Assembly (NCBI GenBank): GCA_965243135.1
Contig: OZ251539.1
Coordinates: 2,496,001 to 2,560,000, forward strand
From: Alphaproteobacteria bacterium
GTDB taxonomy: Bacteria; Pseudomonadota; Alphaproteobacteria; MPNO01; UBA830
Direction: 5' to 3'
DNA length: 64,000 nt
A program made the position numbers and the translations under genes. Numbering within the stretch: position 1 is the first letter of the stretch; each line of letters starts with the position of its first letter. The notes beneath the pieces were generated by a model that saw only the letters and a program-made list of their open reading frames with translations, was not told the origin of the DNA and did not search any database. Shown here piece after piece: positions 14,396-49,881 of the stretch.

Positions 14396-15201
14396 ATGAC
14401 CTTCGAGCGGCAGCCCACGGACAAGTGGCGCAAGGAGATCCCGGGTACGCGCTGGTTCAAGGCGGATCTGCACGTCCACACCATCGACGACCATCCGGGC
14501 GGTCGGGCAAAAATGCCTGCTGGCCTGTCCGGCGATCCAGCGGATCCGCAAACGCTATCGGGCTATGCACGACGCTTTCCGAAAGCCCTCGTCAAACGCG
14601 GCGTACAGGTCGTCGGCCTGACTCCGCATTCGCCGCGCGCGGGGATCGGCCTCCGGTATCCGGCCCGACGCGGCTGCGATATAGCCGCATTCGCCGCGCG
14701 CGGGGATCGGCCGTCGGCAGTTCAATCGCCGCGCCGACCGTTCAACCGCATTCGCCGCGCGCGGGGATCGGCCCCGAAACGAGCGCAGTCTGGCGCATCG
14801 TCGACGAATGGAACGGTGGAACCGACGACGACAGCGTTCCGTTCCGGGAAAAGATTTATGCCATATTCCCCGGATTCGAGCCGTCGCTTAAAGACGGTGA
14901 ATCAGGATTGCACCTTCTGTTCCTTTTCGATCCCGAGATCGGCCGCGATCATTACCTGAAAGCGTTCGACCTTGTCATGAGTGGCGTATCGCCTTGGCAC
15001 GCCGGAAAGTTGCAGATTGCTGGAAAGCGTGCCGAAAAGGCATTCGACGAGTTGGAGGAGTTTCGGGAACGGAAGTGCTCTGTTGCGGCCGGCGGAAATC
15101 GCGCGTGGAGTTCCATGGTTCTTGGCCCCTATATCGACGCAGAGAAGAGATTTTCCGGGGATCGAAAAGCTCAAGTGCTGCAATTCTTCGATCACGGGTA
15201 A
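14396..15201 (+). pseudogene. PHP-domain protein (N-terminus of TrlF/Ppl-like PHP-ATPase), disrupted by a mini-array and apparently truncated
   Basis: WFKADLHVHT PHP motif, VGLTPH, IFPGFE, GLHLLFLFDP; removing 122 bp of inserts joins the two frames into one 227-aa ORF. Confidence 0.75.
14624..14773 (+). CRISPR. Cas-less mini-array 1: 3 x 28-bp repeat, 2 x 33-bp spacers, inside a CDS
   Basis: CCGCATTCGCCGCGCGCGGGGATCGGCC at 14624, 14685 and 14746; spacers 14652-14684 and 14713-14745; GCGGGGAT-N3-CC 3' end as in type I-E repeats. Confidence 0.85.
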
Positions 15202-15269
15202 GCGTTCGCTACCCGGGGGACGAAAAAAATTTGCCCCGGGGACTGGAAACGATTCGCTGATCCCTGCGC

Positions 15270-15565
15270 CTTCATGGAGTTGGCGACACGCAGCCCGTCG
15301 GCTACGCCAATGGCTCTGTCGCAAGCACAAGGTGCGTAAAGGAAAGCATGCGCACTTTCCAAGCGAATGGAACGAAATAGGTCTTACACGCCTACACCGC
15401 AACGAAGAGCTTTCCGTGGGCGAAGGCATGACGAAGCGCGGGAAATCCGCACGTCCGGTTTGACGAGCGGGGACTGGAAACGTGGCCAAGGGAGCCGGAC
15501 CGAGGCCCGGAGCGAAAGCGACGGAACCCGGACCCTAAAGCTAACGCGCCAGTCCTCGACTCTAC
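15270..15565 (+). mobile_element. Group II intron 3' remnant (maturase C-terminus plus domains V/VI)
   Basis: RRLRQWLCRKHKV..IGLTRL maturase tail; GCGGGAAATCCGCACGTCCGGTTTGACGAGCGGGG domain V; CTCGACTCTAC 3' end at 15565. Confidence 0.85.
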
Positions 15566-15910
15566 CTCGACACGCTGGAGCGATTGCCGGCATACGTGGA
15601 CAGGCTTCACCGGCTCGCGGAGGACGCCGGGCGGGATCCCGCGTCGCTCCGGGTCATGTGGTTCACGTTGTGGTGGGGAACGGAACCGGGCGAGCCGCTT
15701 CGGCCGGCGGAGGCCAGTGCTCCGTTTCCCGGCGGCGACCGGCGCCTCCTGAGCGGCGGCACCCAGCGGATGAAGGACGACATGGCGGAGATGGAGGGGA
15801 TCGGCGTCGACTCCGTCATCGTCAACTTCGAGCGGGAAACCGTCGAGGACACGCTCGAAGGCATGGAGGTGTATGCGGCGGAGTTCATCGGGTCCGGAAC
15901 CGGCCTGTGA
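15566..15910 (+). pseudogene. C-terminal fragment of an LLM-class flavin-dependent oxidoreductase
   Basis: LDTLERL..AEDAGRDPASL..GVDSVIVNF..YAAEFI; begins exactly at the intron 3' end and lacks an N-terminus. Confidence 0.7.
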
Positions 15911-16479
15911 CCCGCAATCTCCGGCCGTGGAAGTTGCTGGGATCGAGAGAGATATTCGTCGTCCCCCGGCGGTTCTCGGTGTCCGCCCACGCGGTCGAGT
16001 TGCCCGGCGGCCGACGATACGAGCCCTACTACCGGGTCGATCTCGCCGATCAGGCCTGGGTGGCCGCGACGACGGAGGACGGCCGGTTCATCTGCCAGCG
16101 GCAGTACAAGCACGGGCCGGAGCGGGTCGCGCTCACCCTTCCCGGCGGGATCGTGGATCCGGGTGAGGAGCCCTTGGCTGCCGCCCGCCGGGAACTGCTC
16201 GAAGAGACGGGGTACGAATGTCGGGACTGGCGGCCTCTCGGCGCCTTCTGCCGCAACAACAACCAGCGCTGCGGCGAGGAGCATTTCTTCCTGGCGTCGA
16301 GCGGCGTCTGGAAGCAGGAGCCCGACCCGTCGACGAACCTGGAGGAGATCGAGACTGTGCTCATGACCCGCGACGAGCTGGCGCGGGCCGCGGCGAACGG
16401 CGAGGCGCCCGTGCTCGGCCATCTCGCCGGCATCCTGATGGCCCTTCGGCAACCGCCGCCGGAAGCCGGGAGATCGTGA
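15907..16479 (+). CDS. NUDIX hydrolase (ADP-ribose pyrophosphatase-like)
   Basis: PGGIVDPGEEPLAAARRELLEETGY Nudix box; RQYKHG; GTG at 15907. Confidence 0.9.
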   Translation: MTRNLRPWKLLGSREIFVVPRRFSVSAHAVELPGGRRYEPYYRVDLADQAWVAATTEDGRFICQRQYKHGPERVALTLPGGIVDPGEEPLAAARRELLEETGYECRDWRPLGAFCRNNNQRCGEEHFFLASSGVWKQEPDPSTNLEEIETVLMTRDELARAAANGEAPVLGHLAGILMALRQPPPEAGRS

Positions 16480-16554
16480 CGCCGCCGCCGGGCTCGGCGG
16501 GATTCAGTCCATATCGACCATGTCGACGGATTGCGCCGCCTGCGGTCCGGCGTT

Positions 16555-17628
16555 TCACCCGGCCTCGTCCCATGCCGCGGAGACGGAGGAAGCGAGCCCG
16601 AACAGCGTTTCCTTGCGCATATTCCATCTTTGCCGGTCCAGGATGCAGTACCACTGCTCCGTGACGTTGTTCGTAGGAGGAGCATTGGGTGGAGGCTCGC
16701 GTTCGAAAGGGATGGTTCGCTCCGCCTCCCCGAATTCCTCTTTGCAAAGATGCACCGAGACAGGAAAAAAGGTCACGCGCATCTCCCCGCGATCGGTGAT
16801 CGTCAACGACAGTGGGGCGTTGAATCTTGTCTCGTGTTCGGGGAGTTCCAACGACCGTCGCGCTGTATAGAAGGTGTACCCGCGTGTGCGGGCGTGCAGC
16901 GTGTAACGGCCTTGTTGTTGGAATCTCTCGACCGCCTCGTGGAAAATATCGCTCACACCCTGATTTTCCGCGAATTCGTCGACGGCGCGATGGCGCTCTT
17001 CGCGGCTCTGTCGCCTGTTGCGGCCCCCTCTTGCCGCTTCGGTCGCCTCCGGTTCCGCCCGTACTTGCCTGGCGAGGAGCGTTTTGCCTTCGTGTTCGTA
17101 ACCGTGGAACGTCAGGAGCGATACGTCCACGCCCCGGGCCGCCAGGAAATCCACCATTCGGGTAGCCCGGGCATTGGTGCCGAGGCCGACGAGTATCATC
17201 CTCACGGGCCTCAAGGACGACAGCGGCTGTCCTTCGAAGCGCTGGGCGTACCAGTCCTCGAAATCCTCTATCTCGGCTATGCCGTCGCGGCCCGAGTGTT
17301 GAGCGATGTGCGCCGTCAGTTCGTCGTCGCCCATGGTTTCGAGGTGCGAGGCGTAGTCGATGATCTGGGTGACCGCGTCCCGTGTGAGATCGCCGCGCTT
17401 CAGTTCGAATACGACGAGCTGGCCGTCCGGGTCCACGCCCAGCAGGTCGAGCCAGCCTCCATCGGTCGGAGTCTGCCGCCCCACGAGTTCCAGCCCCGGT
17501 ATCAGCATGTCTGGGTTCTGAACGAGCGTATCCTCGAGCAGGGTCTCGGTTTCGGTGTGACTCGCCCGTTCCACCGGAGCGACCTCGCCTCCGCCCTCGA
17601 TCGCCCACATTTTCAGTTCTTCCGCCAC
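16555..17628 (-). CDS. NucS/DUF91-like PD-(D/E)XK endonuclease domain protein
   Basis: LEDTLVQNPDML, LVGRQTPTDGGWLDLLGVD, VVFELKRG, QIIDYA; GTG at 17628 after a GGAG RBS. Confidence 0.75.
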   Translation of the reverse strand: MAEELKMWAIEGGGEVAPVERASHTETETLLEDTLVQNPDMLIPGLELVGRQTPTDGGWLDLLGVDPDGQLVVFELKRGDLTRDAVTQIIDYASHLETMGDDELTAHIAQHSGRDGIAEIEDFEDWYAQRFEGQPLSSLRPVRMILVGLGTNARATRMVDFLAARGVDVSLLTFHGYEHEGKTLLARQVRAEPEATEAARGGRNRRQSREERHRAVDEFAENQGVSDIFHEAVERFQQQGRYTLHARTRGYTFYTARRSLELPEHETRFNAPLSLTITDRGEMRVTFFPVSVHLCKEEFGEAERTIPFEREPPPNAPPTNNVTEQWYCILDRQRWNMRKETLFGLASSVSAAWDEAG

Positions 17629-17672
17629 GTCCACTCCTCCTCGTCCGCCCTTCCCCGTGGGTTCCGGCGCGG

Positions 17673-18112
17673 TCAGTCGAGGTTTCCCCAGCTTACCACG
17701 CGCTCGACGCGGACGGCGATGACGGGAAGGCCCTCTAGGGCCATCCGCCGGTACTGAGGGGTATCGCCCCCGCAGCATCGCCTGCGCACGGTCGTGCTCC
17801 TCCCCGTTCTCCAGGATTTCCGCCGCGCCTCACCATGACCCAGCCGAGAAGGCTCCAGTCCTCGTCGTAGCGGTCGACGACCAGCGCCGCGGAAGGGTTT
17901 TCGAGGATGTTGCGAATGCGCTTCAGGGGCCGCGCCGTCTCCCTCTTCGGTTTCTCGTCGATCGTGACGTAGAGGCCGCGCGCCCCGAGCGCGAAGCACA
18001 CCGGCGTCACGTGGGGCCGCCCGCCCGCGTCCGCCATCGCCAGCCGCCCGACGCGCTGGCCGTCCAGAAACGCCCGCTCCCCGAACATCCGTAGGAACCC
18101 TTTAGTTGACAT
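17673..18112 (-). pseudogene. PPOX-class F420-dependent oxidoreductase (TIGR03668-like), two frameshifts
   Basis: RVGRLAMAD, PHVTPVCF, IDEKPK, RIRNILENP, VDRYDEDW; C-terminal EILENGEEHDRA and QYRRM..VVSWG lie in two other frames. Confidence 0.8.
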
Positions 18113-18250
18113 CCATGAGTGATTGTGCGAATGGTCTTCCGAAGAAACAGCAGACGGAGTTCGCCATGAGCCGGTGGAAGCCTATTTTCTAGCGTTGGTC
18201 TACACGAGGTTTCGTCTCGCCCCTGACCCGTGAAGTCGGGAACTGGACGT

Positions 18251-18830
18251 TCAAGACCGCCTCTGATCGCTCCGTTCCTGGGCTTTCTCGGCCAACGACC
18301 GGAAGTGCTTGAAGTATCCGGGTGGCATCCCCGTCTCCTCCGCCCGGGCGGAGACGTGCATCTCGACGACATCGTGCAGTTGGATGAGCGCCCCACCGTA
18401 CAGGGGGAGGACGTCGTCCAGCTGCATCAAATCCCGTTCTACCAGCAAACCGACGGTTTCGAAGAATCCCGGCAGCTTCGGGATTTTCAAATAGCGCGCC
18501 TCGCCCGTATCGCGCATATCATGTAGGCGACGGGAGCATTCCTCTCGGAAAGCATCGGTCTTTCTCGATTCGTCAAAGTGTTTGTAATCGTCGTTACTGT
18601 TGACGAACGTTTCAACATCTCTTCGAAAATTGTGAAATTCCGTGCGCGGATCACTGAATTCCGCACTTTCCCACAATCGATCGAGATCGAGGATGATAGA
18701 CGCCCGAGCTTGCCGGGCTCTGCCCTTATTTGCCTCGATTGCCGCCTGAGCCTGCTCCGACGCGGCACCGGTCCGATGCATCGCAAGATGCAGAGCCCGT
18801 ACCGCGACGACTGCCAAGACCACGTTCGCC
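18251..18830 (-). CDS. Hypothetical protein, DUF4760-like (possibly degraded; start uncertain)
   Basis: Hydrophobic N-segment, then RQARASIILDLDRLW and FFETVGLLVERDL. Confidence 0.45.
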
Positions 18831-18989
18831 GCCGCGGATCTGCTTTGGAAACTCTGGTCGGGGATAGCGGTCGCGCGCAGCGCCATTGTCTCCGGCCGTT
18901 GCGGGAAAGCGAGGATTTGGCTTTGGCCCTTCGAGGCGATGACGCTTGTCCCTTGGTTCGCGGCGCCTGATGATTGTTTGCCACGCCGA

Positions 18990-20080
18990 ATCGACCCGAC
19001 TTGGCCCTGAAGGTAAGAACGTTCTGACCTCATGCCCCGGCGCGCCGCTTCGTACGCCGGTTGACCAGCGCCTTGTTGCTTGTTGGCGGGCCACGCCTGA
19101 CCCGTAGCCTCCAGCATTCAGGTTCGCGTAGCGCATGCGGTGCCCGTGCTCGCGAAATCGCCCGATCTCGCGCTCGAGATCCTTGAGCGCCGTCGCTGTC
19201 GTCGCCTTGTCGCGGAGATGGCGCGGCCTTGTCGATACCATTGGCATTGCAACTCAGGACGGCACGGTACTTCTCGTCGGGCGCGACGGTCGGCAACATC
19301 GCTGAGACGTTCGCATGCACGACGAAAATAGACCGCCTGTTGGTCGGGTTGGAGTCTCTCGAGAAACGTCCGGTTGTCGGCTGCGGCGTCGGCGATAGCG
19401 AAAAGCTGAAGGCCAAGCCGCACTTTCGTGGGCGACCTCTTCGGCAATCTGCGCTTTTAGCGTCGCCTCACCGGCCGAAATGCAAATGATCCCGGTCGAT
19501 TGCCGTCCGCGTCATGGAAACTGACGCCTCGCGTCGGCGCGCTTCTTCGCGCCCGTTGGAACGCAGCCCGACGCTGTCGAGCGAGACAGCGCCGCCCGGC
19601 ACCGGTTTCTCCTTGTTCGTCCAAGCCCGCCTCCCCCTTCTCCTCCCATGCCCGCCATCGCCAAAAGGTGCCGCAGGTAACTCGACGACGAGTTCATGCT
19701 CCCCGGCTTTCCGAAGAGTTTGGTCCCGCGGCGTACAGCGATCCATGACCAAGAGAGCGCGGTAACCGGTCCAACCGTCAACCAAACCGAGGCTTTCGTC
19801 GACCGGCGGACGAACTCCCGCGAGCGGGAGAATGTGACCGGACCGGACAACGCGGGTTCATCGCGTCGGCACAGCCCGGTAGAAAACCTGACCGTCCCGG
19901 CGGACCGGGCCGTGGCCATCGTCCTGCGATGTAATCGCCTATAGCCGCACGGCAGGCAGGCAAGCTCGAACGACCCGGTTTCGGTGAACGCTTCGAATCC
20001 CTGATCCCGTCGTTCCATCCGTTTGAGGGCTGCGACTGACTGAAGCGCCTCGGCCGTCGCCGCAGGGAGGTTCGAGAAGG
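18990..20080 (-). pseudogene. Heavily degraded ISKra4/ISLre2-like transposase relic
   Basis: Scattered frames: HRMRYANLNAGGYGSGV, ALVNRRTKR, AVSLDSVG, VDGWT; boundaries approximate. Confidence 0.5.
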
Positions 20081-20346
20081 GCAAACCGGGGCGGTAACGC
20101 CGACATGGCAATGCCGAACCTCCATCCGTTCCAAGTGCGGCGCTCGCCATGTAGGTCGGCGGCCCGCGGCATGAGCCGACGGCAAATCGAGCGAGAGCGC
20201 CGCTGGCGACCCGCCGCCAGGATACGCTCTTCCGCGAGCGCCGCCGGCCCCGGAGCGCGACGCCGGCCATGAACGGGCGCCGCCGCTTGCGCACGGCGAA
20301 ACGGAGTGTGAATATCGGGCTGCGGACAACGGTAGCGGAGGACGGG

Positions 20347-21219
20347 GTGAAGGCGCCGAAATTCAGGTACGCGAGGGCGGAGTCGGTAAGGCATGCCCTC
20401 GAGCTGCTTCAGGCCCATGGGGAGGACGCGCGGATTCTCGCGGGCGGCCAGAGCCTTATGCCGACTCTCAACATGCGCCTGTCGCAGCCGGAGATTCTAA
20501 TCGACATCAACCGTCTCGAAGAGCTGCGCGGCATCCGCGACGACGACAGCGCGATACGCATCGGCGCCCTCGCGCGGCACGTCGAAGTGCTGAACTCGGA
20601 CATCGTCGGGAAGCGTCTGCCGCTGATCGCCGAAGCGATGCCGCACGTCGCCCATGCGGCGGTCCGCAATCGCGGGACGTTCGGCGGCAGCGTGGCGCTC
20701 GCCGACCCCGCGGCCGAACTGCCGGCCTGCGTCCTCGCGCTCGGCGCGACCATCGTCCTGGAAAGCGTCGACGGCAAGCGGGAGGTCGCGGCGGAAGACT
20801 ACTTCAAAGGCCTTTACGAAACCGCGCGGCGCGACGACGAACTCCTCGTCGAAATCCGCGTTCCTCCGCAAAAATCCGAAAACGCGTCGGTTTTCCTGGA
20901 ACTCGCGCGCCGCCGCGGCGATTTCGCGATCGCCGGCGTCGCCGCCTGCGGAAAGGTGTCGAAAGGAACGATAGAAGACATGCGCCTGGTTTATTTCGCG
21001 AGCGAGGACAAACCGACGGTCGGAACGGCGGCCGCCGCCGCCCTGCGAGGCCGGCCCTGGTCGAACGAGACGCGCGAGGCCGCGACCGCGGCGCTGGAGG
21101 ACGATCTCGACCCGATGGCGAACCTGCACGGCAGCGCAGCGATGAAGATGCATCTCCAGAAGGTGCTGACCGGCCGCGCGATGGACGCGGCCGTCGCGCG
21201 CGCGGAAGCGTCGTCATGA
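20347..21219 (+). CDS. Xanthine dehydrogenase family FAD-binding subunit (CoxM-like)
   Basis: AGGQSLMP, IRIGALARH, RNRGTFGGS, ADPAAELP, RRGDFAI. Confidence 0.92.
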   Translation: MKAPKFRYARAESVRHALELLQAHGEDARILAGGQSLMPTLNMRLSQPEILIDINRLEELRGIRDDDSAIRIGALARHVEVLNSDIVGKRLPLIAEAMPHVAHAAVRNRGTFGGSVALADPAAELPACVLALGATIVLESVDGKREVAAEDYFKGLYETARRDDELLVEIRVPPQKSENASVFLELARRRGDFAIAGVAACGKVSKGTIEDMRLVYFASEDKPTVGTAAAAALRGRPWSNETREAATAALEDDLDPMANLHGSAAMKMHLQKVLTGRAMDAAVARAEASS

Positions 21220-21704
21220 ACGAGGAAACCCTTGCGGTCTCCATGACCGTCAACGGCGAACGAATCGCCCGGTCGATTCCCGTCAGGCAGCATCTGGTCG
21301 ATTTCGTGCGCAACGAACTCGGTTTCACGGGATCCCATCTCGGCTGCGAGCACGGGGTCTGCGGCGCGTGCTCGGTGCGGGTCGACGGCGCCGTCGTGCG
21401 CGGCTGCCTCGTTCTCGCGGTGCAGTGCGAGGGAGCCGACGTCGTCACCATCGAAGGCCTTTCGGATTCTGGCGAGATTAGCGATCTGCAGGAAACCTTC
21501 GTCGAGCGCAACGCGCTTCAGTGCGGATACTGCACGCCCGGAATGCTGATGACCGCGGCCGAACTTCTCGCCGAACGCCGGCCGCGAAGCCGCGAGGAAA
21601 TTCGCGAATTCATGTCCGGCAACTACTGCCGCTGCACCGGCTACCACGCCATCGTCGACGCGATCGAAACCGTCAACGACGCTCGGCTCGGGACCGAGCG
21701 ATGA
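21216..21704 (+). CDS. (2Fe-2S)-binding subunit (CoxS-like)
   Basis: GCEHGVCGAC, QCGYCTPG, NYCRCTGY. Confidence 0.93.
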   Translation: MNEETLAVSMTVNGERIARSIPVRQHLVDFVRNELGFTGSHLGCEHGVCGACSVRVDGAVVRGCLVLAVQCEGADVVTIEGLSDSGEISDLQETFVERNALQCGYCTPGMLMTAAELLAERRPRSREEIREFMSGNYCRCTGYHAIVDAIETVNDARLGTER

Positions 21705-25987: not shown

Positions 25988-25996
25988 GGCGGCGCG

Positions 25997-28063: not shown

Positions 28064-28157
28064 TCTCCTGACGGGCTCGCGCCCTGCGGCGCTCTCCCGC
28101 CTCCGGAAGAAAGGGAGTCGCGCTGTCCGACGGCGGCTCCGCCGCCGTTGTCCGCGG

Positions 28158-38025: not shown

Positions 38026-38028
38026 CCC

Positions 38029-40086: not shown

Positions 40087-40095
40087 CCGCCGGCC

Positions 40096-40863
40096 TCAGT
40101 GGACGGTCTGACCGCCGTCGACCACCATCGAAACGCCGTGAACGTAAGATGCGGCGTCGGAAGCGAGAAATGCGATCGCATTGGCGATCTCGTCGCATTC
40201 GGCGAGACGGCCCAGCAGCGCCAGCTCCTCGACGGCCCGGCCGTCGACCATGCCGGATTCGATGTAATTCCTGACCCGCGGCGAAAGCGTCGCGCCGGGG
40301 CAGATGCCGTTCACCCGGATGTTCTCCTTGCCGTAGTCGACGGCCAGCTGCCGGGTCAGCGACAGCACGCCTCCCTTGGCCGCGCAATAGACCGGCATTT
40401 CCGGGTGGCCGATGATGCCGAAGGTGGATGCGACGTTGACGATCGACGCGCCGTTCGGCGCCTTGCGCAACAACGGCAAAAATGCCCTGCACATGAAATA
40501 AACGCTGGAAAGATCGATGCCGATGACGCGCTGCCAGTCGTCCTCTTCCAAATCTTCGAGTTTCTTGACGAAGTTGGTGCCGGCGTTGTTGACGACCGAC
40601 TTCACGTGACCGTGCCTCGAAGCGATGTCGGCGGCGAGCGCTTCGACCTGACGCCGGTCCGAGACGTCGGCGACGTGCCCCTCGCACGACGCCCCGGCGC
40701 GCCGCAGGATATCTTCGGTCTCGCGAACGTTGTCGCCGGTCTTGCTGACGACGACGACATGAGCGCCCAGTTCGCCCAGCGTCTCGCAGCAGGCGCGGCC
40801 GATGCCCTGCCCGCCTCCGGTGACCACGACCGGCGCGCCGTGAAACTTGAGCCGTTCGAGCAT
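40096..40863 (-). CDS. SDR family oxidoreductase
   Basis: TGGGQGIG, NNAG, YCAAKGG, IRVNGICPG, VDGG; ATG at 40863. Confidence 0.92.
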   Translation of the reverse strand: MLERLKFHGAPVVVTGGGQGIGRACCETLGELGAHVVVVSKTGDNVRETEDILRRAGASCEGHVADVSDRRQVEALAADIASRHGHVKSVVNNAGTNFVKKLEDLEEDDWQRVIGIDLSSVYFMCRAFLPLLRKAPNGASIVNVASTFGIIGHPEMPVYCAAKGGVLSLTRQLAVDYGKENIRVNGICPGATLSPRVRNYIESGMVDGRAVEELALLGRLAECDEIANAIAFLASDAASYVHGVSMVVDGGQTVH

Positions 40864-40888
40864 CGTCCCTCCCCCTGCCCGGCAAACG

Positions 40889-42034
40889 TCAGGCGGCTTT
40901 CGCCTTTCTCTTCTTCGGAACCTTGATGCCGTAGAACCGCGCCGGATTGTCATGAAGGATTTTCCGTTGCTGACGCGGCGTGATGTCGGCTCGCGTCCCG
41001 AGATCTTCTCCCGAACCCTCCCGGGCCTCGAGATGCGGCATGTCTTCCGACACCATGAGGTTGTTTTCGCCGAGATATTCGATCGCCTGCGGCAGCAGGC
41101 GTTCGCCGGCTTCGCAGGTAGCGTAGATCCGGTCCTTGTAGGATTCGGGGCTTCCCGACGTGATCGGTTCAAGTCCGAACGACGAACGAAAGAATTCGCA
41201 GACCGGATAGTAGTGATCCATGCGCTCCAGATACCATGGGATCCAGCCCGCTCCGCCTTCGAGAAAGATCACACGAAGCTCGGGATGGCGGTCGAGAATG
41301 CCCCCGCCGGCGAAGGAATAGAAGCCGATGAGCAGCGGCAAGGTGAAAGAAACGTTGAGCGAGGACGAGTGTTCGTCGCACAGCTGCCGCAACGGGCCCG
41401 GCCATCCCACGTGCACTGCGACGGGAAGGCCGCATTCGGCCGCCTGATCCCAAACCCGGTCGAACCTGCGGTCGTGCAGCATGGTATCGCCGACGGTGCC
41501 GTAACACATCAAGCCGACGGCGCCCGCGTCCTTCGCGCGGCGTATCTCCCTGACCGCCGCGCCGGGTTCGCGCAGAGGCAGCGACGCCACCCATCTCAGA
41601 CGACCGGGCGCCTCGCCGCAACGTTCGGCGATCCATTTGTTGTAGCTGACCTCAAGCGCCGCCTGGAATTCATCGTCGTCGGTCAAGGGCGCGAACAGAA
41701 GGGTCGGATAGATCACCTGGACGTCGACGCCGGCGCGGTCGAGGTCGGCGATCCGCGCGGGCACGTCCATCAGCGACTGATTGCCGACGGAGAACTCCTT
41801 CATCCCGGCATGCACGGAGGTCAAAGGGCAGCCGATCTGGACCGTCCCCGGCCCCCAGGTCCACTGCACCGCCTTGCCGTCCACCAGCCAGAACGAATTG
41901 TCCACTCCCATATACGGCGCCTCGGCGGGCGGAACGGTGACGGCCAGGGGCCGCCGGTGCCGGAACTTCCTGGGCAGATAGTCCCATGTCTCCTCCACTT
42001 CGTAGACATGGGAATCGGCGTCGATATAGGTCAT
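40889..42034 (-). CDS. Amidohydrolase_2 family protein (decarboxylase/hydratase-like)
   Basis: IDADSH, QVIYPT, AVHVG, FLEGGAGW, SEDMPH, HDNPARFY. Confidence 0.85.
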   Translation of the reverse strand: MTYIDADSHVYEVEETWDYLPRKFRHRRPLAVTVPPAEAPYMGVDNSFWLVDGKAVQWTWGPGTVQIGCPLTSVHAGMKEFSVGNQSLMDVPARIADLDRAGVDVQVIYPTLLFAPLTDDDEFQAALEVSYNKWIAERCGEAPGRLRWVASLPLREPGAAVREIRRAKDAGAVGLMCYGTVGDTMLHDRRFDRVWDQAAECGLPVAVHVGWPGPLRQLCDEHSSSLNVSFTLPLLIGFYSFAGGGILDRHPELRVIFLEGGAGWIPWYLERMDHYYPVCEFFRSSFGLEPITSGSPESYKDRIYATCEAGERLLPQAIEYLGENNLMVSEDMPHLEAREGSGEDLGTRADITPRQQRKILHDNPARFYGIKVPKKRKAKAA

Positions 42035-42071
42035 GGCGAAACTCTCCAGCAGGTGGTTCCCCCGCGGAACG

Positions 42072-43265
42072 TCACTCCGCGGCGGCGGCGGTCGTCGTCT
42101 CGAAGCCGCGATACTGCGCGTCGGACAGGGTTTGCAGCGCCGGAAGCACGTCGGAAGCGAACAACCTGATGCTCTTTTCGGTCGCCGCGGCCGGCAGCGT
42201 GCCGAAATGCGCCAGGGCGACGAAGGTCCCGAATCCCAGCGCCTCATGGCACGCGGCGAGCTTGCGCCGCACGGTCTCCGGGCTGCCGACGACGACCACG
42301 CCGTTTTCCATCAGCCCCTCCATCGTCTGGGTCGACATGATGCCCCGCTTGTGAGCTGCAACCCGTTTCCACGAGCGGGGCGTGAGGTATCCCGGCGGGA
42401 ACAGCGTGTCGAACGGCAGGTACAGAAACTTGTTGAACAGCGCCTCCATGTGCGGCGCCGCCTCCGCAACGGCCCGCTCGTCGGTTTCCGCGACGTAAAC
42501 CGGAGCCGTCCAGGCGATCTGGTCCGAAGACGCGGCGTAGCCGTATTTCGCCTCGGCCGTCTCGCGGTACTGGTCGAGAAACTTGCGGACGTTCCGGAAC
42601 GGGCTGTAGTTCTGGGCGTAAACGTACCGGCGGTCGGGGTGTGCGGCCCATTCGATCGTCTCGGTGGAACCGAGCGACGGGCACCAGATCGGCGGATGCG
42701 GGGTTTGATACGGTCGCGGCCAGACGTTCACGTACTCGAAGTGAAAATGCTTGCCCTCGAACGCGAAGGGCCCCTCCTCCGTCCAGGCGCGGACGACGAG
42801 ATCGTGGACTTCCACGTGGCGTTCGTGACTGAAGGTCGGATTCGCCCCCATCGAATAGAACTCGGCTCCGATGCCCCGCACGAAACCGGTGACCAACCGT
42901 CCCCCGGTGATGCAGTCGATCATGGCGTGCTCTTCGGCCAACGTCAGCGGATGCTCGCGCAACGCGAACGCGTTGCCGAGGATCGCGATGCGGCAGCTTT
43001 CCGTCCGGCGCGAGAGGGACGACGCCATGACCACCGGCGACGGCATCAGGCCGTAGGCGTTCTGATGGTGTTCGTTGACGGCGATGCCGTCGAAGCCGAG
43101 TTCGGCCGCCAGTTCCAGTTCGTCGAGGTAACGGTTGTAGAGTTGGTGCCCCGCCTTCGGATCGTACAGCCGGTTGGGCAACGTGACCCAGGCCGACGAA
43201 TGCCGGCCGCGCTCCGTCATGTCGAGCGCGGCATACGGCATCAGGTGGAACATGAAGACCTTCAT
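42072..43265 (-). CDS. LLM-class flavin-dependent monooxygenase
   Basis: GFDGIAVNEHH, GRLVTGFVRG, WPRPYQTPHPP, VGSPETV. Confidence 0.9.
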   Translation of the reverse strand: MKVFMFHLMPYAALDMTERGRHSSAWVTLPNRLYDPKAGHQLYNRYLDELELAAELGFDGIAVNEHHQNAYGLMPSPVVMASSLSRRTESCRIAILGNAFALREHPLTLAEEHAMIDCITGGRLVTGFVRGIGAEFYSMGANPTFSHERHVEVHDLVVRAWTEEGPFAFEGKHFHFEYVNVWPRPYQTPHPPIWCPSLGSTETIEWAAHPDRRYVYAQNYSPFRNVRKFLDQYRETAEAKYGYAASSDQIAWTAPVYVAETDERAVAEAAPHMEALFNKFLYLPFDTLFPPGYLTPRSWKRVAAHKRGIMSTQTMEGLMENGVVVVGSPETVRRKLAACHEALGFGTFVALAHFGTLPAAATEKSIRLFASDVLPALQTLSDAQYRGFETTTAAAAE

Positions 43266-44045
43266 TCAGGCGCTTTTCGCCAGAAAGCCGGTCAACGAAT
43301 CGACGAAAACGTCCGGCCGCTCGACATGCGGCAGGTGACCCGCATTCTCGATCATGGTGACTTCGGCCCCGAGTATGCCGCCGAGCTCGCCGGCGTAGAC
43401 GGGGTCGACGATCCGGTCCGAGTCTCCCCACACGACGTGAGCCGGCACCGTTATCCGGTGCAGCCACTTGCGCAGGGCCGGGTTGAACAACCGGGGTTGC
43501 CAGCCGAGCCGGGCCGTCGACACCCGGTTGCGGAGCTGGATGTCGACCTGTTCTTCGGTCAGCTCCGCGCCGAGTATGCGGTCCGCATGGCTCTGATCGA
43601 CGAACAGTTCGCGAACGAGCTGATCGGGATCCATCATGAAGATGTCCGCGATCGGTTTCCCCTTGATGCGTATTCCCGCAGCGCCGATCAACGTAAGGCT
43701 CTTCAGCCGCGTCGCGTTTCGCACCGCGATCTCCATGGCCAACCAGCCGCCAAGGGAATTGCCGACGAGGTGGACGCCTCGCAGATCCAGCGCGTCGAGA
43801 AAATCGAGGTAGAACATCGCGAGATCGTTCATGTCGTCGAGCCAGTCCGGCTCGTCCGAAAGGCCGTAGGACGGATGGTCCGGAACGTGCAGGTCGAAGG
43901 CGTCGGAAAGCGACTGGAAAGCGGGAATCCAGCCGGGAACCCCGCTGGCGCCGTGAAGGAAAAGCATGGGTTCCCCGGAGCCGCCGCGGCACAAATGAAC
44001 GCCGCACCCCCTTACGTCGACCCTGGTCTCGGTGAAATCCGCCAT
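43266..44045 (-). CDS. Alpha/beta fold hydrolase
   Basis: FLHGASG, GNSLGG nucleophile elbow, WGDSD, AGHLPH; ATG at 44045. Confidence 0.9.
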   Translation of the reverse strand: MADFTETRVDVRGCGVHLCRGGSGEPMLFLHGASGVPGWIPAFQSLSDAFDLHVPDHPSYGLSDEPDWLDDMNDLAMFYLDFLDALDLRGVHLVGNSLGGWLAMEIAVRNATRLKSLTLIGAAGIRIKGKPIADIFMMDPDQLVRELFVDQSHADRILGAELTEEQVDIQLRNRVSTARLGWQPRLFNPALRKWLHRITVPAHVVWGDSDRIVDPVYAGELGGILGAEVTMIENAGHLPHVERPDVFVDSLTGFLAKSA

Positions 44046-44062
44046 GTCCTCGCTTCTCCTTT

Positions 44063-44893
44063 TCAGTTCTTCGCTTCGCCGTCCCCGGCCGACGCCGGGC
44101 CCAGCCCCGGCTTGTACTTCTTGTCGAGGAAATCGCCGATGCCTTCTTCCCGAAACGCGTCGTTCTGGCGCTGCGTGTGCCACGCCTGCATTGCCGCCGA
44201 GTAGTTCATCGCCGTATCCCAGTCCATTCCCAGCGAATGGAAATACGCCTCCTTGGTCGCCTGCAACGCGGAGAGATCCTTCTCGGCGATTTCCCGCGCG
44301 AGCGCCGTCACCTCCTCGCGCAGCCGCTCCCGCGGCACGGCGTAATTCACGAAACCCATCTCCGCCGCCCTGGCGCCGTCGAACGGCCGGCCGGTGAGCG
44401 CGTAGAACTTGTAGTCGCGCGGACGCAGCAGGTTGCCCATGGACTTCGACACGCTGCCGCCGGGAAACATCTTGAAGTTGATCTCGCTCAGCCCCATCTT
44501 CGCGTCCTCGGCCGCGACCGCGAGATCGCAGGCCTCGACGATGGTGAACGCGCCGCCGAAGCAGTGTCCGTTGACCATCGCGATAGAGGGTTTCGGAAAC
44601 AGGCGCAGCGTTCGGCCGCGCCATTCGATGGCGACCCGCGACGCGCGGTCGTACTCGGCCGGCTTGTCCCGCAAATCCATGAAGAATTCCTTGAGATCCA
44701 TGCAGGCGCAGAAGGATTCGCCCGCCCCGGTGATCACCAATACCTTGCAACGATCGTCGTTGCGCAGGCGTTCCAGCGCGTCCGCCGCCTCCTCCCCGAG
44801 AAGAGGGTTCATCGCGTTGCGCTTCTCCGGCCGGTCGAGCGTCAGCGTCGTCACGCCATCGTCGAAATCGACGCGTATCGTCCGGTATTCCAT
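44063..44893 (-). CDS. p-Hydroxycinnamoyl-CoA hydratase/lyase (crotonase family)
   Basis: KRNAMNP, MDLKEFF, FGGAF, LSEIN, and C-terminal FLDKKYKPGLG typical of HCHL/Ech; ATG at 44893. Confidence 0.82.
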   Translation of the reverse strand: MEYRTIRVDFDDGVTTLTLDRPEKRNAMNPLLGEEAADALERLRNDDRCKVLVITGAGESFCACMDLKEFFMDLRDKPAEYDRASRVAIEWRGRTLRLFPKPSIAMVNGHCFGGAFTIVEACDLAVAAEDAKMGLSEINFKMFPGGSVSKSMGNLLRPRDYKFYALTGRPFDGARAAEMGFVNYAVPRERLREEVTALAREIAEKDLSALQATKEAYFHSLGMDWDTAMNYSAAMQAWHTQRQNDAFREEGIGDFLDKKYKPGLGPASAGDGEAKN

Positions 44894-45426
44894 GCGCCCT
44901 CTCCGGCTGACGGACATCGTTACGTTGCGGGCGAAGTGTCGTCCGACTCCTGTGAATGTCAAGCGCGAGAGCCCGCTCGACTCGCCGCGAGGGCCGGCCG
45001 CTTGCCCTCGCCGGTTACCGCGTCTAGTTTGACGAGCGCCCACGCCGGCCGAGTGGCTGATCGTTCGACGCTGAAGAAACGATCGGTTTTCCGCTTTGGG
45101 ATCGCGCCGCGGAGACGGCGCATCGGGCGCTCGCCTGCGGCCGGGCGTTGCGGAACGGGCCGACCCGGCTGTCCGAAAGGGTGAATGAACCGTACGCGGC
45201 GGCCACCGCGAACAAGCTGGAGAACGACGATTTGGCGCGCCATGAGGCGAACGGGACAAACGGGCGCATGGCAAACGTCTTCTCGACCCCTGCCTGTCGG
45301 CGCATGCATCGCAAGGTGATTCCGGATGTCGAAACGCGCAGGACGCTCCTCCGGGCCGTCCCGGAACGGGCAGGCGGTGGCGCTCGAACGACGCCTCCGC
45401 GGTGACGTGACCGCGGCCTGAGCCAA

Positions 45427-46590
45427 GTGTCTCGCGCCCGGTACGCGGTGCTGGCAGGCGTCCTGGCGCTGCTGCCCATGCTCCTGCCGCTGACGGTCGA
45501 CGGATCCCTGCCGTTGCTGCCGGTCCTCGCGGCGGATTTCCGCGTCGAAACGGCCCAGTTCTGCGTTACGGCCGCGGTTCTGGGGATCGCGGCCGGCCAG
45601 CTGGTTTACGGCCCGCTGTCGGATAGTTTCGGCCGAAAGCCGGTCATTCTGACGAGCGTTTGCCTCTACGCAGCGGCCTCGGTCGCGGGCGCCCTCGCGC
45701 CTTCCATGGAGGCGTTGCTCGGGATCCGCTTTTTGCAGGGCTTCTTCGCATGCTCAGGCGTGATCGTCGCCCGCGCGGTCATCCGCGACCTCTTCGATCG
45801 CGAAGCCGGCGCGAAATTGTTTTCGCTGATGATGGGCATTCACGGGATCATGCCGGCGATCGCCCCCGGCGCCAGCGGCCTCCTCGCGGAACAATGGGGC
45901 TGGCGAACGGTCTTCGCGGCCATGGCGGGGTTCGGAGCGTTCGCGTTCGCGGCCGTCCTCCTGGGACTCGCCGAAACCCGCCGCGCCAGGCGCCGCCCCG
46001 CCCCGGTCCTCGGCAACTTTCGCCATGTCCTCTCGAACCGGAGTTTCCGCGCCTACGCCGTCTGCGCGAGTTTTTCCTACGCCGGGTTGTTCGCGTATTT
46101 CGCGGGCGCGCCGGTCGGGTTGATACAGTATCTCGGGCTCGCGCCCGAGCAGTACGGAATAGCGATGGCGGTTCCGATGATCGCCTACATCGCAACGCAG
46201 ATCGCGGTGGCGCACCTCGTTCACGCCCTCGGCCTCGACCGGCTGATTCGCGTCGGCGCATGGCTTGCCGTCGTCGCGGGCGCCGGCCTGGCGATTTCGG
46301 TTCTGGCCGGGTTCGTGAACGTCTATACGCTGACCGCGCCCATTGTCCTCCTTCTGACGTCGCTCGCGTTCGTCATACCCGGAACCACGGTCGGCGCCGT
46401 GTCGCCGTTCCCGCAGACGGCCGGCGCCGCCTCTTCGCTGTTGGGCTTCATCCAGTTCATGGCGGCCGCCGTCGCGACCGCCGCCGTCGGAGTCCTCGAC
46501 GACGGAACGCCCGCTCCCATGGCGGGCACGATCTGCTTCTGCGCCGTCGGCGCGCTGGCGACCGCGCCGCGGCGAAAGGCGTTCCCGTGA
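45427..46590 (+). CDS. Bcr/CflA family MFS efflux transporter
   Basis: GQLVYGPLSDSFGRKPV, ARAVIRD, GWRTVF, AGAASSL. Confidence 0.88.
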   Translation: MSRARYAVLAGVLALLPMLLPLTVDGSLPLLPVLAADFRVETAQFCVTAAVLGIAAGQLVYGPLSDSFGRKPVILTSVCLYAAASVAGALAPSMEALLGIRFLQGFFACSGVIVARAVIRDLFDREAGAKLFSLMMGIHGIMPAIAPGASGLLAEQWGWRTVFAAMAGFGAFAFAAVLLGLAETRRARRRPAPVLGNFRHVLSNRSFRAYAVCASFSYAGLFAYFAGAPVGLIQYLGLAPEQYGIAMAVPMIAYIATQIAVAHLVHALGLDRLIRVGAWLAVVAGAGLAISVLAGFVNVYTLTAPIVLLLTSLAFVIPGTTVGAVSPFPQTAGAASSLLGFIQFMAAAVATAAVGVLDDGTPAPMAGTICFCAVGALATAPRRKAFP

Positions 46591-47780
46591 AGTTCCCGAA
46601 CGGAATCGGCGTCGCGGCCCTCCTGGGACTGACGACCATGGCGACCGCGATCGGCATCGACGGCACGCTTCCCGCCATGCCGGCCATGGTGGAAGCGTTC
46701 GGAACGACCCGGACGTCCGTTCAGACCACGCTCAGCCTGTTCATGGTCGGCGTCGCCATCGGGCAGCTGGTGCACGGCCCGTTGTCGGACCGCTTCGGCA
46801 GAAAACCGGTCATCGTCGCGGCAATGCTGATCACCGGCGCGGCCACGGCCGGCTGCGCCGCCGCGCAGTCTCTCGAAGCGCTCATGGCGTTCCGTTTCCT
46901 GCACGGCATCTCGGCGTCGGCGGGCTTCATCGTGGCGCGCGCGGCCGTCCGCGACCGCTACGAACGCGCCGAGGCGGCGCGCGTCATTTCGCTCGTGCTG
47001 TTCGTTCACGGGTTCGCGCCGCTGATCTCGCCGGTCGTCGGCGCTCACCTGACCGTCGCCTTCGGCTGGCGCGCCGTCTTCGCCTTTATCGCCGGCTACA
47101 GCGTCCTCGTCGCGCTGGCGTTCGGCGCGATCTTTCGCGAGACGCTCGAACGTCCGGATCCCGACGCGCTGCGAATCGCGCCGATGCTCCGCAATTTCCG
47201 GGAGATTTCGCGCAACGCGACGTTCTGGGCCTACACGGGCTGCGCGACGGCATGCTTCGGCATCCTGTTTTCGTTCCTTTCCGCCTCGTCGCACGTGATC
47301 ATCGCCTTTTTCGGCGAAAGCGAAACCGCTTACAGCTACATGTTCGGCGGCTGCATGATCGGCACCATTGCCGGAATGCTCCTGAACTCCCGCCTGATCC
47401 CCCGTTACGGCACCGACCGGCTCCTGCGGTGGGGAGTCTGGCAGGCGTCGCTGTTCGGCCTGCTGATGCTCGGCCTTTCGCTGGCCGGCGCGCAGAACTG
47501 GGTCGCCGTAATCGGCCCCATGTTCTTCTGCATGATCGCGTTTTCCCTGATCTACCCGCAGACGCTCGCGGGAGCGCTGCAGCCGTTTCCTCATGCGGCC
47601 GGAGCCGCGTCCTCGCTGGCCGGGCTGGCGCAGCAGCTCGCGGCCGCCGTCACCGGCATGGCCGTCGCGGCGCTTACGACCGGCGGCACCCAGACGGCGC
47701 TGGCCGGCGGAGTCGCGTTCTGGGCGCTGTTCGCGCTCGTCCTCTACCTCGCCGCGATCCGGCGCCGCGCCCCGCGATGA
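46587..47780 (+). CDS. Bcr/CflA family MFS efflux transporter (tandem paralog)
   Basis: GPLSDRFGRKPV, ARAAVRD, GWRAVF, AGAASSL; GTGA overlap at 46587. Confidence 0.88.
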   Translation: MKFPNGIGVAALLGLTTMATAIGIDGTLPAMPAMVEAFGTTRTSVQTTLSLFMVGVAIGQLVHGPLSDRFGRKPVIVAAMLITGAATAGCAAAQSLEALMAFRFLHGISASAGFIVARAAVRDRYERAEAARVISLVLFVHGFAPLISPVVGAHLTVAFGWRAVFAFIAGYSVLVALAFGAIFRETLERPDPDALRIAPMLRNFREISRNATFWAYTGCATACFGILFSFLSASSHVIIAFFGESETAYSYMFGGCMIGTIAGMLLNSRLIPRYGTDRLLRWGVWQASLFGLLMLGLSLAGAQNWVAVIGPMFFCMIAFSLIYPQTLAGALQPFPHAAGAASSLAGLAQQLAAAVTGMAVAALTTGGTQTALAGGVAFWALFALVLYLAAIRRRAPR

Positions 47781-47823
47781 CCGGGCGCTTTCCCGGCGCG
47801 GCGGTTTTTGATACATCCCGCAC

Positions 47824-49116
47824 ATGGCCATCCCCCGCTATTCGCGACCCCGGATGACGGCGATCTGGGCGCCCGAAAACAGGTTCCGCATCTGGTTCGA
47901 AATCGAAGCGCTCGCCTGCGAGGCGCAGGCCGAGCTGGGCCTGATCCCCAAGGAAGCCGCGAAAGCGGTCCGCGAGCGCGGGCGGTTCGAGATCGAGCGC
48001 ATAGAAGAAATCGAGCGCGAAACCAGGCACGACGTGATCGCGTTCCTGACGAATCTCGCGGAACACGTCGGCGAGGAAGCCCGCTTCGTGCATCGGGGGA
48101 TGACCTCTTCCGACGTGCTCGATACCTGTCTCGCGGTTCAGCTCGCGCGCGCTTCCGACATTCTGCTCGAGGACCTCGACGGTCTGCTGGCGGCGCTCAG
48201 GTCCCGCGCCGAGGAGTTCAGGATGACGCCTACCATCGGGCGCAGTCACGGGATTCACGCGGAGCCGACCACGTTCGGAATCAAGCTGGCCGGGCATTAC
48301 GCGGAATTCGACCGCAATCGCGCGCGGTTGCGCGCCGCGCGCGCGGAAATCGCGGCCTGCGCCCTTTCCGGAGCCGTCGGCACCTTCGCGAACATCGACC
48401 CCCGCGTCGAAGCCTACGTGGCGAAAGCCCTGGGGCTGACTCCCGAACCGGTTTCCACCCAGATCGTGCCGCGCGACCGGCATGCGGCCTTTTTCGCGAC
48501 CCTCGCCGTCGTCGCGTCTTCGGCGGAACGCCTCGCCATCGAAATCCGGCACCTGCAGCGCACCGAGCTGCGCGAGGCGGAGGAGTTCTTTTCCGCCGGC
48601 CAAAAGGGTTCGTCGGCCATGCCGCACAAGCGCAACCCGGTGCTTACGGAAAACATGACGGGCCTCGCCCGCCTGGTGCGAGCGTGCTGCCCGCCCGCGC
48701 TGGAGAACGTGGCGCTCTGGCACGAGCGCGACATCTCGCATTCCTCCGTCGAACGCGTCATCGCGCCCGACGCGACGATCACGCTCGATTTCCTGCTGGC
48801 CCGGGCGGCGGGCGTCGTCGAGAACCTGGTCGTCTATCCGGAAAACATGCGGCGAAACCTCGACGCTCTCGGCGGCCTCGTCCATTCGCAGCGCGTGCTT
48901 CTCGCGCTCACGCAGGCGGGAATGAGCCGCGAGGAGGCCTACGCCGCCGTGCAGCGCAACGCCATGGCGACGTGGCGCGACGGCGGCTCGTTTCGGGATC
49001 GGCTCGAAGCGGATCCGGAAGTGCCGATCGACAAGGCGACCCTGAACGAGCTATTCGACCTCGGTTATCACCTGAAGCACGTCGACACCATCTTCGAACG
49101 GGTCTTCGGCCCGTAG
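47824..49116 (+). CDS. purB: Adenylosuccinate lyase
   Basis: IPRYSRP, RHDVIAF, TSSDVLD, GRSHGIHAEP, SSAMPHKRNP, WHERDISHSS. Confidence 0.97.
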   Translation: MAIPRYSRPRMTAIWAPENRFRIWFEIEALACEAQAELGLIPKEAAKAVRERGRFEIERIEEIERETRHDVIAFLTNLAEHVGEEARFVHRGMTSSDVLDTCLAVQLARASDILLEDLDGLLAALRSRAEEFRMTPTIGRSHGIHAEPTTFGIKLAGHYAEFDRNRARLRAARAEIAACALSGAVGTFANIDPRVEAYVAKALGLTPEPVSTQIVPRDRHAAFFATLAVVASSAERLAIEIRHLQRTELREAEEFFSAGQKGSSAMPHKRNPVLTENMTGLARLVRACCPPALENVALWHERDISHSSVERVIAPDATITLDFLLARAAGVVENLVVYPENMRRNLDALGGLVHSQRVLLALTQAGMSREEAYAAVQRNAMATWRDGGSFRDRLEADPEVPIDKATLNELFDLGYHLKHVDTIFERVFGP

Positions 49117-49118
49117 GG

Positions 49119-49445
49119 TCAGCCCTCTTCGGAGTCGATCTGCCGCTCCGCCTCGTCCAGCAACCGGTCCATTTCCCCGCGCAGCCGCGGCTCGTCCATG
49201 CCGATGCCGCGCGCAGCGAAGTCCGCGAGAACCTTGCGGACAACGTCGGCGTCGCCGGGTTCCTCGAAATCGGAGTGCACGACCTCCTTCGCGTATTCGG
49301 CGGCGGGGTCGCCGGAAAGGCCGAACCGCTCCGCCGCCCAGAGGCCGAGCAGCCGGTTGCGGCGCGCCGTGATGCGGAACAGCTTGTCCTGATCCCGCTT
49401 GTACTTGTGCTCGAAGCTTTTCTGGCGCTCTTCCAGAGTGGCCAT
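49119..49445 (-). CDS. DUF1476 family protein (ATPase inhibitor zeta-like)
   Basis: ERQKSFEHKY, ARRNRLLGLWAA, DFEEPGDADVVRK. Confidence 0.88.
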   Translation of the reverse strand: MATLEERQKSFEHKYKRDQDKLFRITARRNRLLGLWAAERFGLSGDPAAEYAKEVVHSDFEEPGDADVVRKVLADFAARGIGMDEPRLRGEMDRLLDEAERQIDSEEG

Positions 49446-49731
49446 GGTCGTTCCTTTTGCTGACGTCGGACTGCAGCGCCGCTCATAATCCGCGTTGGAT
49501 CGTCGGGTCACGATGCGAATGGCCACAATCTACAAAGGATCGTTTACCAACACATCGAAGCGCTAATCAAGTTCGACCTCCCAACGAAGCGTTCCCAAAA
49601 CGAATGGGCGCGACAACGAATCCGCACGCGCGCCGACCATCCGTTCGGCCGGCTCTCCCTTGTCCGGACGCTCCGTCGCCATTCGGCCTTCGATCGGGAA
49701 CGCGCCCTCCCCGGCAGCCGAATTCGGCAAA

Positions 49732-49881
49732 CGATTACCCGAGCGCGCGCGGCCGCGGGCGGAGTTTGAAGCGCCGTGACTTCGGTGTCGCCCGATTACC
49801 CGAGCGCGCGCGGCCGCGGGGGCAGGCCGCCCGCCGCGCCGTCGCTTTCTTTCCGATTACCCGAGCGCGCGCGGCCGCGGG
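49732..49881 (-). CRISPR. Cas-less mini-array 2: 3 x 28-bp repeat, 2 x 33-bp spacers
   Basis: CGATTACCCGAGCGCGCGCGGCCGCGGG at 49732, 49793 and 49854; spacers 49760-49792 and 49821-49853; both spacers start with G on the minus strand. Confidence 0.8.

Follow-up and report, generated by a model that had tools for sequence, protein, structure and literature searches.

The DNA analyzed here is a 64,000-nucleotide (nt) window of an alphaproteobacterial genome, spanning positions 2496001-2560000 within a single 6,103,318-bp contig (OZ251539.1; 65% G+C). Its subject is two short repeat-insert arrays that have the layout of CRISPR loci. An earlier note on this window had proposed that an integrase of the organism itself writes spacers into repeat-like chromosomal sites, and the arrangement on which it relied, three perfect 28-bp repeats alternating with two unique 33-bp inserts, is present at both loci as described. 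Five-digit coordinates below refer to the window and longer ones to the genome. Array 1, on the plus strand, has repeat copies at 14624-14651, 14685-14712, and 14746-14773, all identical (CCGCATTCGCCGCGCGCGGGGATCGGCC), and two mutually dissimilar inserts at 14652-14684 and 14713-14745. Its first repeat copy is the original target site and encodes PHSPRAGIG in the host gene. Array 2 has three identical repeat copies at 49732-49759, 49793-49820, and 49854-49881 (CGATTACCCGAGCGCGCGCGGCCGCGGG on the plus strand), with inserts at 49760-49792 and 49821-49853; its repeats were placed on the minus strand by choice in the earlier note, and either orientation is possible. With the two repeats so oriented, hand counting reproduces the shared positions already listed (C8, 11-17, 20-21, T23, and C27) and adds C1 and C2, giving 14 of 28 positions in common, the central CGCGCGC included. 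The identities to the Escherichia coli type I-E repeat given previously (15/28 and 14/28) also hold by hand count against the string as quoted there.

Array 1 splits a protein-coding gene. The 5' part of the gene (14396-14623, plus strand; MTFERQ...VQVVGLT) reads MTFERQPTDKWRKEIPGTRWFKADLHVHT...VQVVGLTPHSPRAGIG in one frame upstream of the array, and the 3' part (14774-15201, plus strand; PETSAVWRIVDEWNGG...) reads PHSPRAGIGPETSAVWRIVDEWNGG... in another frame downstream of it. Both halves match consecutive parts of a single open frame at 1098523-1101414 (E values of 4e-24 and 6e-36), the 5' part with 54% protein identity to its N-terminus and the 3' part with 45% identity to the next segment. 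This paralog encodes 915 amino acids with C-terminal matches to AAA_21/SMC-type ATPases. In the paralog, the two segments lie 27 nt apart and in frame, whereas in the window they lie 149 nt apart and out of frame. Because the halves are continuous in the paralog, the 28-mer of array 1 was coding sequence, and two 61-bp insertions (122 bp, a shift of the frame by 2) frameshifted the gene, in keeping with the insertional mutagen envisaged earlier. The window copy ends at 15201, far earlier than the paralog, and the gene may already have been in decay. The location of array 1 within coding sequence also makes leader-independent integration plausible. When metagenomes were scanned with the 3' portion of this gene, 123 stretches fitted the pattern, and one of them was a weak relative (54% identity over 35 residues).

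The absence of cas1 from the window was likewise borne out, since every cas1 match in the genome falls at 5.26-5.31 Mb. The type I-E cas1-cas2 pair that had been anticipated elsewhere in the genome is present there with a full operon. A canonical array at 5302374-5307163, on the minus strand, consists of 78 perfect 28-bp repeats (GCTTCCCCCGCACACGCGGGGATGTACC) and a degenerate terminal copy, with spacers of 33 bp (76 spacers) or 34 bp (2 spacers). Its repeat is close to the consensus that had been predicted for this genome and has the same 28+33 geometry. The array lies directly downstream of cas3-cse1-(cse2?)-cas7e-cas5e-cas6e-cas1e-cas2e on the same strand, with an unrecognized 152-amino-acid open reading frame (ORF) in the cse2 position and a leader of ~55 nt of A+T-rich DNA after cas2. 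The score of Cas1e is 301 bits (TIGR03638; cut-off, 215.6) and that of Cas2e is 95 bits (TIGR01873; cut-off, 33); in NCBIfam, Cas1e, Cas2e, Cas5e, and Cas7e exceed the curated cut-offs, and Cse1 and Cas6e fall slightly below theirs. The reading frames of cas1e and cas2e are open.

The I-E locus is one of three CRISPR-Cas loci within ~55 kb (5263941-5316380), each with its own cas1 beside an array. The other two arrays have a period of 66 (5265242-5272800) and a 37-bp repeat with a period of ~77 (5284180-5287867), and among the three systems the 28+33 geometry is found in the I-E system only. Off-target products of the other two cas1 systems were also considered and set aside: five of the repeat-insert-repeat loci at other periods (64, 67, 76, 76, and 77) have inserts without a second copy, except for one within a duplicated segment. 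These five loci also provide a negative control for the self origin of the period-61 inserts described below.

Units with the geometry of arrays 1 and 2 recur across the chromosome. The whole chromosome, with the three large arrays left out, was scanned for 28-mers that recur at a fixed distance. At a minimum of 26/28 identity, a distance of 61 yields 12 loci, all of the repeat-insert type, compared with none at distances of 55-59 and 62 and two at 60, both plain tandem duplications. At thresholds of 21-24/28, a distance of 61 yields 15 loci, versus 0-4 at the other distances between 52 and 71 not divisible by 3; at distances divisible by 3, the loosest threshold gives 20-40 loci, as protein repeats would. 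The period-61 pattern is thus far beyond chance, and the further units predicted genome-wide were found at 13 coordinates besides arrays 1 and 2. The 15 loci are 385672 (four repeats), 973350 (two), 1912722 and 1922849 (two each), 1968209 and 1988846 (two each), 2208565 (three), 2510624 (array 1), 2545732 (array 2), 2742314 (11), 2992258 (two), 4477871 (two), 4812991 (three), 5621020 (two), and 5803370 (two). The pairs 1912722/1922849 and 1968209/1988846, ~10.1 kb and 20.6 kb apart, respectively, carry identical inserts, indicating that they were copied by later segmental duplications. With each pair counted once, the 15 loci reduce to 13 independent loci with 27 unique inserts.

Some of these loci have distinctive features. 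The largest, at 2742314-2742951, contains 11 repeats and 10 inserts, with two repeat variants and one duplicated repeat-spacer unit. Four of its inserts are self-derived and several are AT-rich and of unmatched origin, and it is the best candidate for a nascent array. A blastn comparison of the 11-repeat array with phages and plasmids gave nothing meaningful (best match, a Streptomyces plasmid at E=3e-4 and 68% identity), and two AT-rich inserts from other loci had no exact match in a viral contig collection. The isolated three-repeat mini-array at 4812991-4813140 has repeats identical to the canonical I-E repeat at 25/28 positions and forms the same hairpin; one of its inserts matches the chromosome at 32/33 positions, with the AA motif discussed below on the side opposite to that expected. 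This locus is better seen as an isolated canonical-type mini-array. At 4477871, excision of the unit in silico fuses two frames into at least 819 codons. A gene disruption is not claimed for this locus, because an enoyl-CoA hydratase Pfam domain is found downstream only, with none upstream, and open frames are common at 65% G+C. The G+C content of third codon positions (GC3) is too weak a guide to coding in this genome.

The inserts derive largely from the host chromosome. In a blastn-short search of each insert with 8 nt of flank against the genome, 15 of the 27 unique inserts match exactly one other chromosomal place, and most of the matches end at the insert borders. Eight inserts are exact copies: array 1 contributes both of its inserts, array 2 one, and the 11-repeat array three, and the other two are at 5621020 and 1912722. 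The remaining seven matched inserts differ from their sources at 1-3 positions, as expected for older events. Within the window, then, three of the four inserts, for which a search against the host genome had been suggested, are exact copies of other chromosomal sites. The first insert of array 1 is a copy of 4935965-4935997 in a sulfatase gene, and the second is a copy of 362269-362301 (minus strand). The array 2 insert at 49760-49792 is a copy of 3798571-3798603 in an ABC-transporter gene, and the insert at 49821-49853 has no match elsewhere in the genome. ORFs at eight mini-array source sites and at the source of canonical spacer c43 were scanned with Pfam. The mini-array sources comprise rho, hydantoinase/oxoprolinase, HemN-like radical-SAM, metallo-beta-lactamase-fold, sulfatase, ABC-transporter, and HATPase_c_4 genes together with one ORF without a Pfam match, and the c43 source is a dihydroorotate-dehydrogenase-like gene. 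Canonical arrays are known to contain self-targeting spacers that match the host chromosome; here self sequence is rare in the functional array (2/78 spacers) and forms the majority in the mini-arrays (15/27 inserts; Fisher P = 3e-9).

The source sites show a bias toward an adjacent AA dinucleotide. With each array read on its plus strand, the source 33-mer has AA immediately 5' of it in 6 of 15 cases, array 1 insert 1 among them, against a background of 4.1% (binomial P 1.8e-5). In one or two more sources, the 33-mer is immediately followed by TT, equivalent to AA on the opposite strand. The source of array 1 insert 2 is preceded by TT and so lacks the AA motif, and that of the array 2 insert at 49760-49792 has AA on neither side. 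Three of the four window inserts do begin with G in the orientation of the earlier note, yet the derivation of this G from an AAG motif did not hold up: the base following AA varies among the sources (G, T, G, C, G, and C), and canonical spacers begin mostly with C (C 36, G 20, T 20, and A 2). In the orientation of array transcription, both canonical spacers that match self have TT immediately 3'; they were therefore captured beside AA but sit flipped in the array. It can be inferred that flipped self spacers lack a usable interference motif and hence survive in a working array.

The sources are also unevenly distributed. Four of the 15 (rho, hydantoinase, HemN-like, and metallo-beta-lactamase) fall within 82 kb at 4658567-4740687 (simulated P ~0.01) and seven fall within 484 kb (P ~0.004), both P values being optimistic because the window sizes were picked after the data had been seen. 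The 82-kb segment may be an acquisition hot region. The cumulative GC skew is anomalous at 4.6-4.9 Mb.

The target sites were characterized by an empty-site test, in which the units were removed in silico and the joined flanks were searched against the genome. The site at 2992258 lies in an insertion sequence (IS) transposase gene (DDE_Tnp_1_4), of which a 95% identical, uninterrupted copy is present at 2793879-2794208, along with four further uninterrupted copies of the site. The 11-repeat array sits within a YhgA-like transposase paralog; a relative of this paralog at 4504509-4504837 contains the 28-mer once, and the locus at 2208565 has a single-copy paralog at 3781203-3781513. Both 973350 and 1912722 belong to a multi-copy AAA-ATPase_like family, 12-14 members of which hold the site once. 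These two loci carry different inserts at the same position to within 1 bp, indicating that the site was hit twice independently. The single-copy target versions that had been called for were therefore found in paralogs within the same genome, for four loci other than arrays 1 and 2, and since the paralogs of these four hit sequences hold the 28-mer once, the 28 bp represent a target-site duplication. For array 1, the empty site is represented at the protein level only, by the 45-54% identical paralog with its one continuous frame. With 1150 bp around each array as query, blastn against 40 relatives, each species represented by one genome, detected no orthologous empty site. Array 1 gave just two matches of 24-25 bp and array 2 was matched in its left-flank gene alone, so these relatives are too distant for the comparison to decide anything about empty sites.

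Although unrelated in overall sequence, the target sites share a core that resembles part of the canonical repeat. Array 1 is identical to this repeat at 15/28 positions, array 2 at 14/28, and the other sites at 13-17/28, compared with a median of 9 and a 99th percentile of 14 for random genomic 28-mers. When 12 sites are placed in their best mutual orientation, a core of CCGCGCGCGCG emerges at positions 8-18, together with G21, and G occupies position 14 in all 12 aligned sites. Core positions 8-11, 13, and 15-18 equal those of the canonical repeat. The core thus corresponds to the part of the canonical repeat that forms the hairpin stem, but has additional CG in place of the loop. As an exact 11-mer, the core occurs only 105 times in the genome, counting both strands. 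In a leave-one-out analysis with a position weight matrix, 7 of the 12 sites rank within about the top 4,300 of 12.2 million 28-mers.

These observations are best explained if, at both mini-arrays, the organism's own type I-E Cas1e-Cas2e integrated spacers off target ('neo-CRISPR' integration), a reading to which a probability of about 0.9 is assigned; the core of the earlier interpretation, an integrase of the host writing spacers into repeat-like chromosomal sites, is supported to the same degree. Under this model, the integrase would capture 33-bp fragments, mostly from the host chromosome and preferentially at sites next to 5'-AA. It would then join them to the chromosome via two staggered cuts 28 bp apart, at sites centred on a GC palindrome like CCGCGCGCGCG, which may imitate positions 8-11 and 15-18, the stem of the genuine repeat. 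Repair of the gaps would duplicate the 28 bp and so produce a repeat-insert-repeat unit with a 61-bp period. As every insertion would double the number of targets, the same site could be hit again, as arrays 1 and 2 appear to have been (two hits each), and another site may have reached 11 repeats in this way.

Several points weigh against this explanation. The dependence on Cas1e-Cas2e is inferred. Among the joints listed for contigs from four public runs, none skips 61 or 122 bp across array 1, with the limit that contigs drop rare variants; given this lack of presence/absence polymorphism, ongoing activity is not demonstrated. AA precedes only 6 of the 15 sources, another three have AT, and the others have neither. 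Array 2 has a source for one of its two inserts, and that source lacks AA; this array also has no empty-site comparator, with zero spanning matches in the genome. For five of the 12 target sites, ~40,000 other 28-mers of the genome rank higher in the leave-one-out scoring, and thousands of sites that score as well or better are empty, indicating that other factors must contribute to the choice of site. Finally, because the core is palindromic, most sites could be aligned with the canonical repeat in either direction, and for arrays 1 and 2 the orientation chosen by canonical identity disagrees with that chosen by joint optimization.

It is highly unlikely that the mini-arrays are instead working, dispersed CRISPR arrays that are transcribed, processed, and used by Cascade, as their 28+33 geometry would allow. 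In the canonical repeat, a 6-bp stem closes a tetraloop and 7 nt follow it (z -2.9); the repeat at 4812991 folds alike. The array 1 and array 2 repeats share only 15/28 and 14/28 positions with the canonical one; they have no canonical stem-loop and fold no better than shuffled sequences (z +0.68 to +1.94; 153-199 of 200 shuffles fold at least as well). In favour of working arrays, the 11-repeat locus has AT-rich, non-self inserts and a repeat able to fold a 5-bp stem where the canonical hairpin lies. The window lacks an AT-rich leader, as had been noted before: nothing like the 55-nt canonical leader flanks array 1 or array 2, and array 1 sits inside coding sequence. Three of the four window inserts are perfect copies of host genes, one with AA beside its source, and their use would be autoimmune; the excess of self sequence in the mini-arrays over the canonical array is what unselected, unused inserts would show. 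With no Cas6e hairpin and many perfect self spacers, some with AA, arrays 1 and 2 probably yield no CRISPR RNA (crRNA) that Cascade could load, and the lack of a usable crRNA would in turn explain why perfect self-matching spacers are tolerated. The suggestion that such sites serve as a distributed memory is accordingly unlikely for arrays 1 and 2, which lack a Cas6e-type hairpin and hold self DNA in three of four inserts.

Very improbable, too, is an origin of the mini-arrays as pieces of genuine arrays that either aged and degenerated or were relocated by recombination or transposition. The locus at 4812991-4813140 fits such a history, since its repeats keep 25/28 canonical positions and the same hairpin, and it may well be an isolated canonical-type array. 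The repeats of arrays 1 and 2, by contrast, differ from the canonical repeat at about half of their positions and also from each other. The array 1 repeat lies in a conserved frame (PHSPRAGIG) that runs on, to either side, into sequence homologous to the paralog, and paralogs of four other loci already contain the 28-mer as a single copy. The chance that the pattern is an assembly artefact or a fortuitous direct repeat is close to negligible; nothing beyond the short length of the arrays speaks for it, and the period-61 excess and the 33/33 matches to distant genes speak against it. Nine public runs from three studies contain the array 1 region, and the contigs (Logan) of four of them were compared. 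A contig from run X8 covers 14244-14742 without a difference, through repeat 1, insert 1, repeat 2, and insert 2. One from run X1, a sponge metagenome belonging to a different study, extends over 14694-15226, differing at four letters and by one 6-base deletion; it runs from within repeat 2 through insert 2 and repeat 3 into the flank. Contigs from runs X7 and X9 cover parts of array 1. The units are thus spanned in independent runs, excluding an assembly artefact for array 1 and showing that it also occurs in a slightly divergent strain. Separately, contigs from X7 and X8 contain a joint that skips 427 bp across array 1 (14493 to 14921), with 28 letters on the shorter side; this joint may come from a repeat or from another organism.

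Both arrays have genes of a defence or mobile type as neighbours. Array 1 is adjoined by an ORF with Pfam matches to DruA and a transposase DNA-binding domain (12745-14040, minus strand). Near array 2 lies a conserved 135-amino-acid gene (49119-49526, minus strand), which has 61-69% protein identity over the best segment in the loci of nine relatives and whose start is ~206 bp from array 2, the array lying upstream of it. Nothing past 49529 is conserved in the nine loci, so the DNA that holds array 2 is non-conserved and probably intergenic. On its other side, array 2 is adjoined by a type I restriction-modification methylase gene (HsdM; 50459-52438, plus strand). Elsewhere in the window, a tandem array with a 26-bp unit, CCGGATTGTCGCCGAGCGCGGACTTT, occupies 63405-63675 (10.4 copies, 99% identity) and is flanked on both sides by degenerate copies (63353-63742); the unit length is not divisible by 3.

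Off-target Cas1-Cas2 integration in E. coli, giving rise to neo-CRISPR loci, was reportedly described by Nivala, Shipman, and Church in 2018 (Nat Microbiol 3:310). The loci analyzed here represent the same kind of event, and the phenomenon itself is already known. As in E. coli, the proposed integrase is of type I-E, spacer-sized inserts occur at repeat-like sites, and a target of repeat length is duplicated; there, too, repeated hits have been seen as a possible route to new arrays. Unlike in E. coli, 15 inserts here have identified sources, and paralogs hold single-copy versions of the targets. Isolated arrays away from cas genes are said, in the 2020 work of Shmakov et al. (CRISPR J 3:535), to have repeats that mostly equal cas-adjacent ones; the repeats here are unrelated host sequences, some of them coding, that have only a GC-palindromic core in common.

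Other accounts help to place the finding. One describes off-target events detected in E. coli cells that over-produced Cas1-Cas2 and were fed oligonucleotides, events that were rare and were recovered by deep sequencing (PMC7054753), whereas here 13 independent loci are fixed in a wild genome. Natural off-target cases rest on circumstantial evidence from two other species, according to a preprint (10.1101/148544), and among the literature matches listed the term neo-CRISPR was met in this preprint alone; comparable natural cases may already be in print. Off-target acquisition is one of three origins proposed for isolated arrays away from cas genes in another source, which cites Shmakov et al. 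(PMC13142298). For Pyrococcus furiosus, the available sections of a further study report that Cas1-Cas2 integrates in vitro, free of a leader, at repeat-like plasmid sites one repeat length apart, and that these off-target sites share positionally conserved bases with the repeat, as the sites here do (PMC6698737). The P. furiosus work differs in that it was carried out in vitro on another subtype with a 30-bp spacing, and in those sections it records no chromosomal fixation (PMC6698737). The present genome is unusual in how densely the events occur in a wild organism, in self sources that can be traced, in single-copy paralogs acting as internal controls, in a site that was hit repeatedly, and in its frameshift and 11-repeat derivative.

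According to secondary accounts, off-target integration has so far been documented under over-expression in E. coli and in vitro, with circumstantial natural evidence. This genome provides a dense natural case with internal checks, comprising 13 independent sites and 27 unique inserts, 15 of them traced to a source. It makes testable how arrays are born, what sequence or structure the integrase reads, how extensively adaptation samples self DNA, and what adaptation costs the host. A broader reading, in which the mini-arrays are an unselected natural record of type I-E adaptation that jointly reveals a hot region, gene breakage, array birth, and a measure of the autoimmune filter, stands at roughly even odds. 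If it is correct, most of the fragments captured in this wild bacterium, whose DNA is found in sponge metagenomes, would be self, with source sites clustering in one 82-kb chromosomal hot region. Off-target integration would recur at GC-palindromic sites often enough to break genes and transposases, and at one such site an 11-repeat array would have arisen, with foreign-looking spacers among its inserts. The difference between 15/27 and 2/78 self spacers would then be a direct measure of the autoimmune filter acting on the canonical array.

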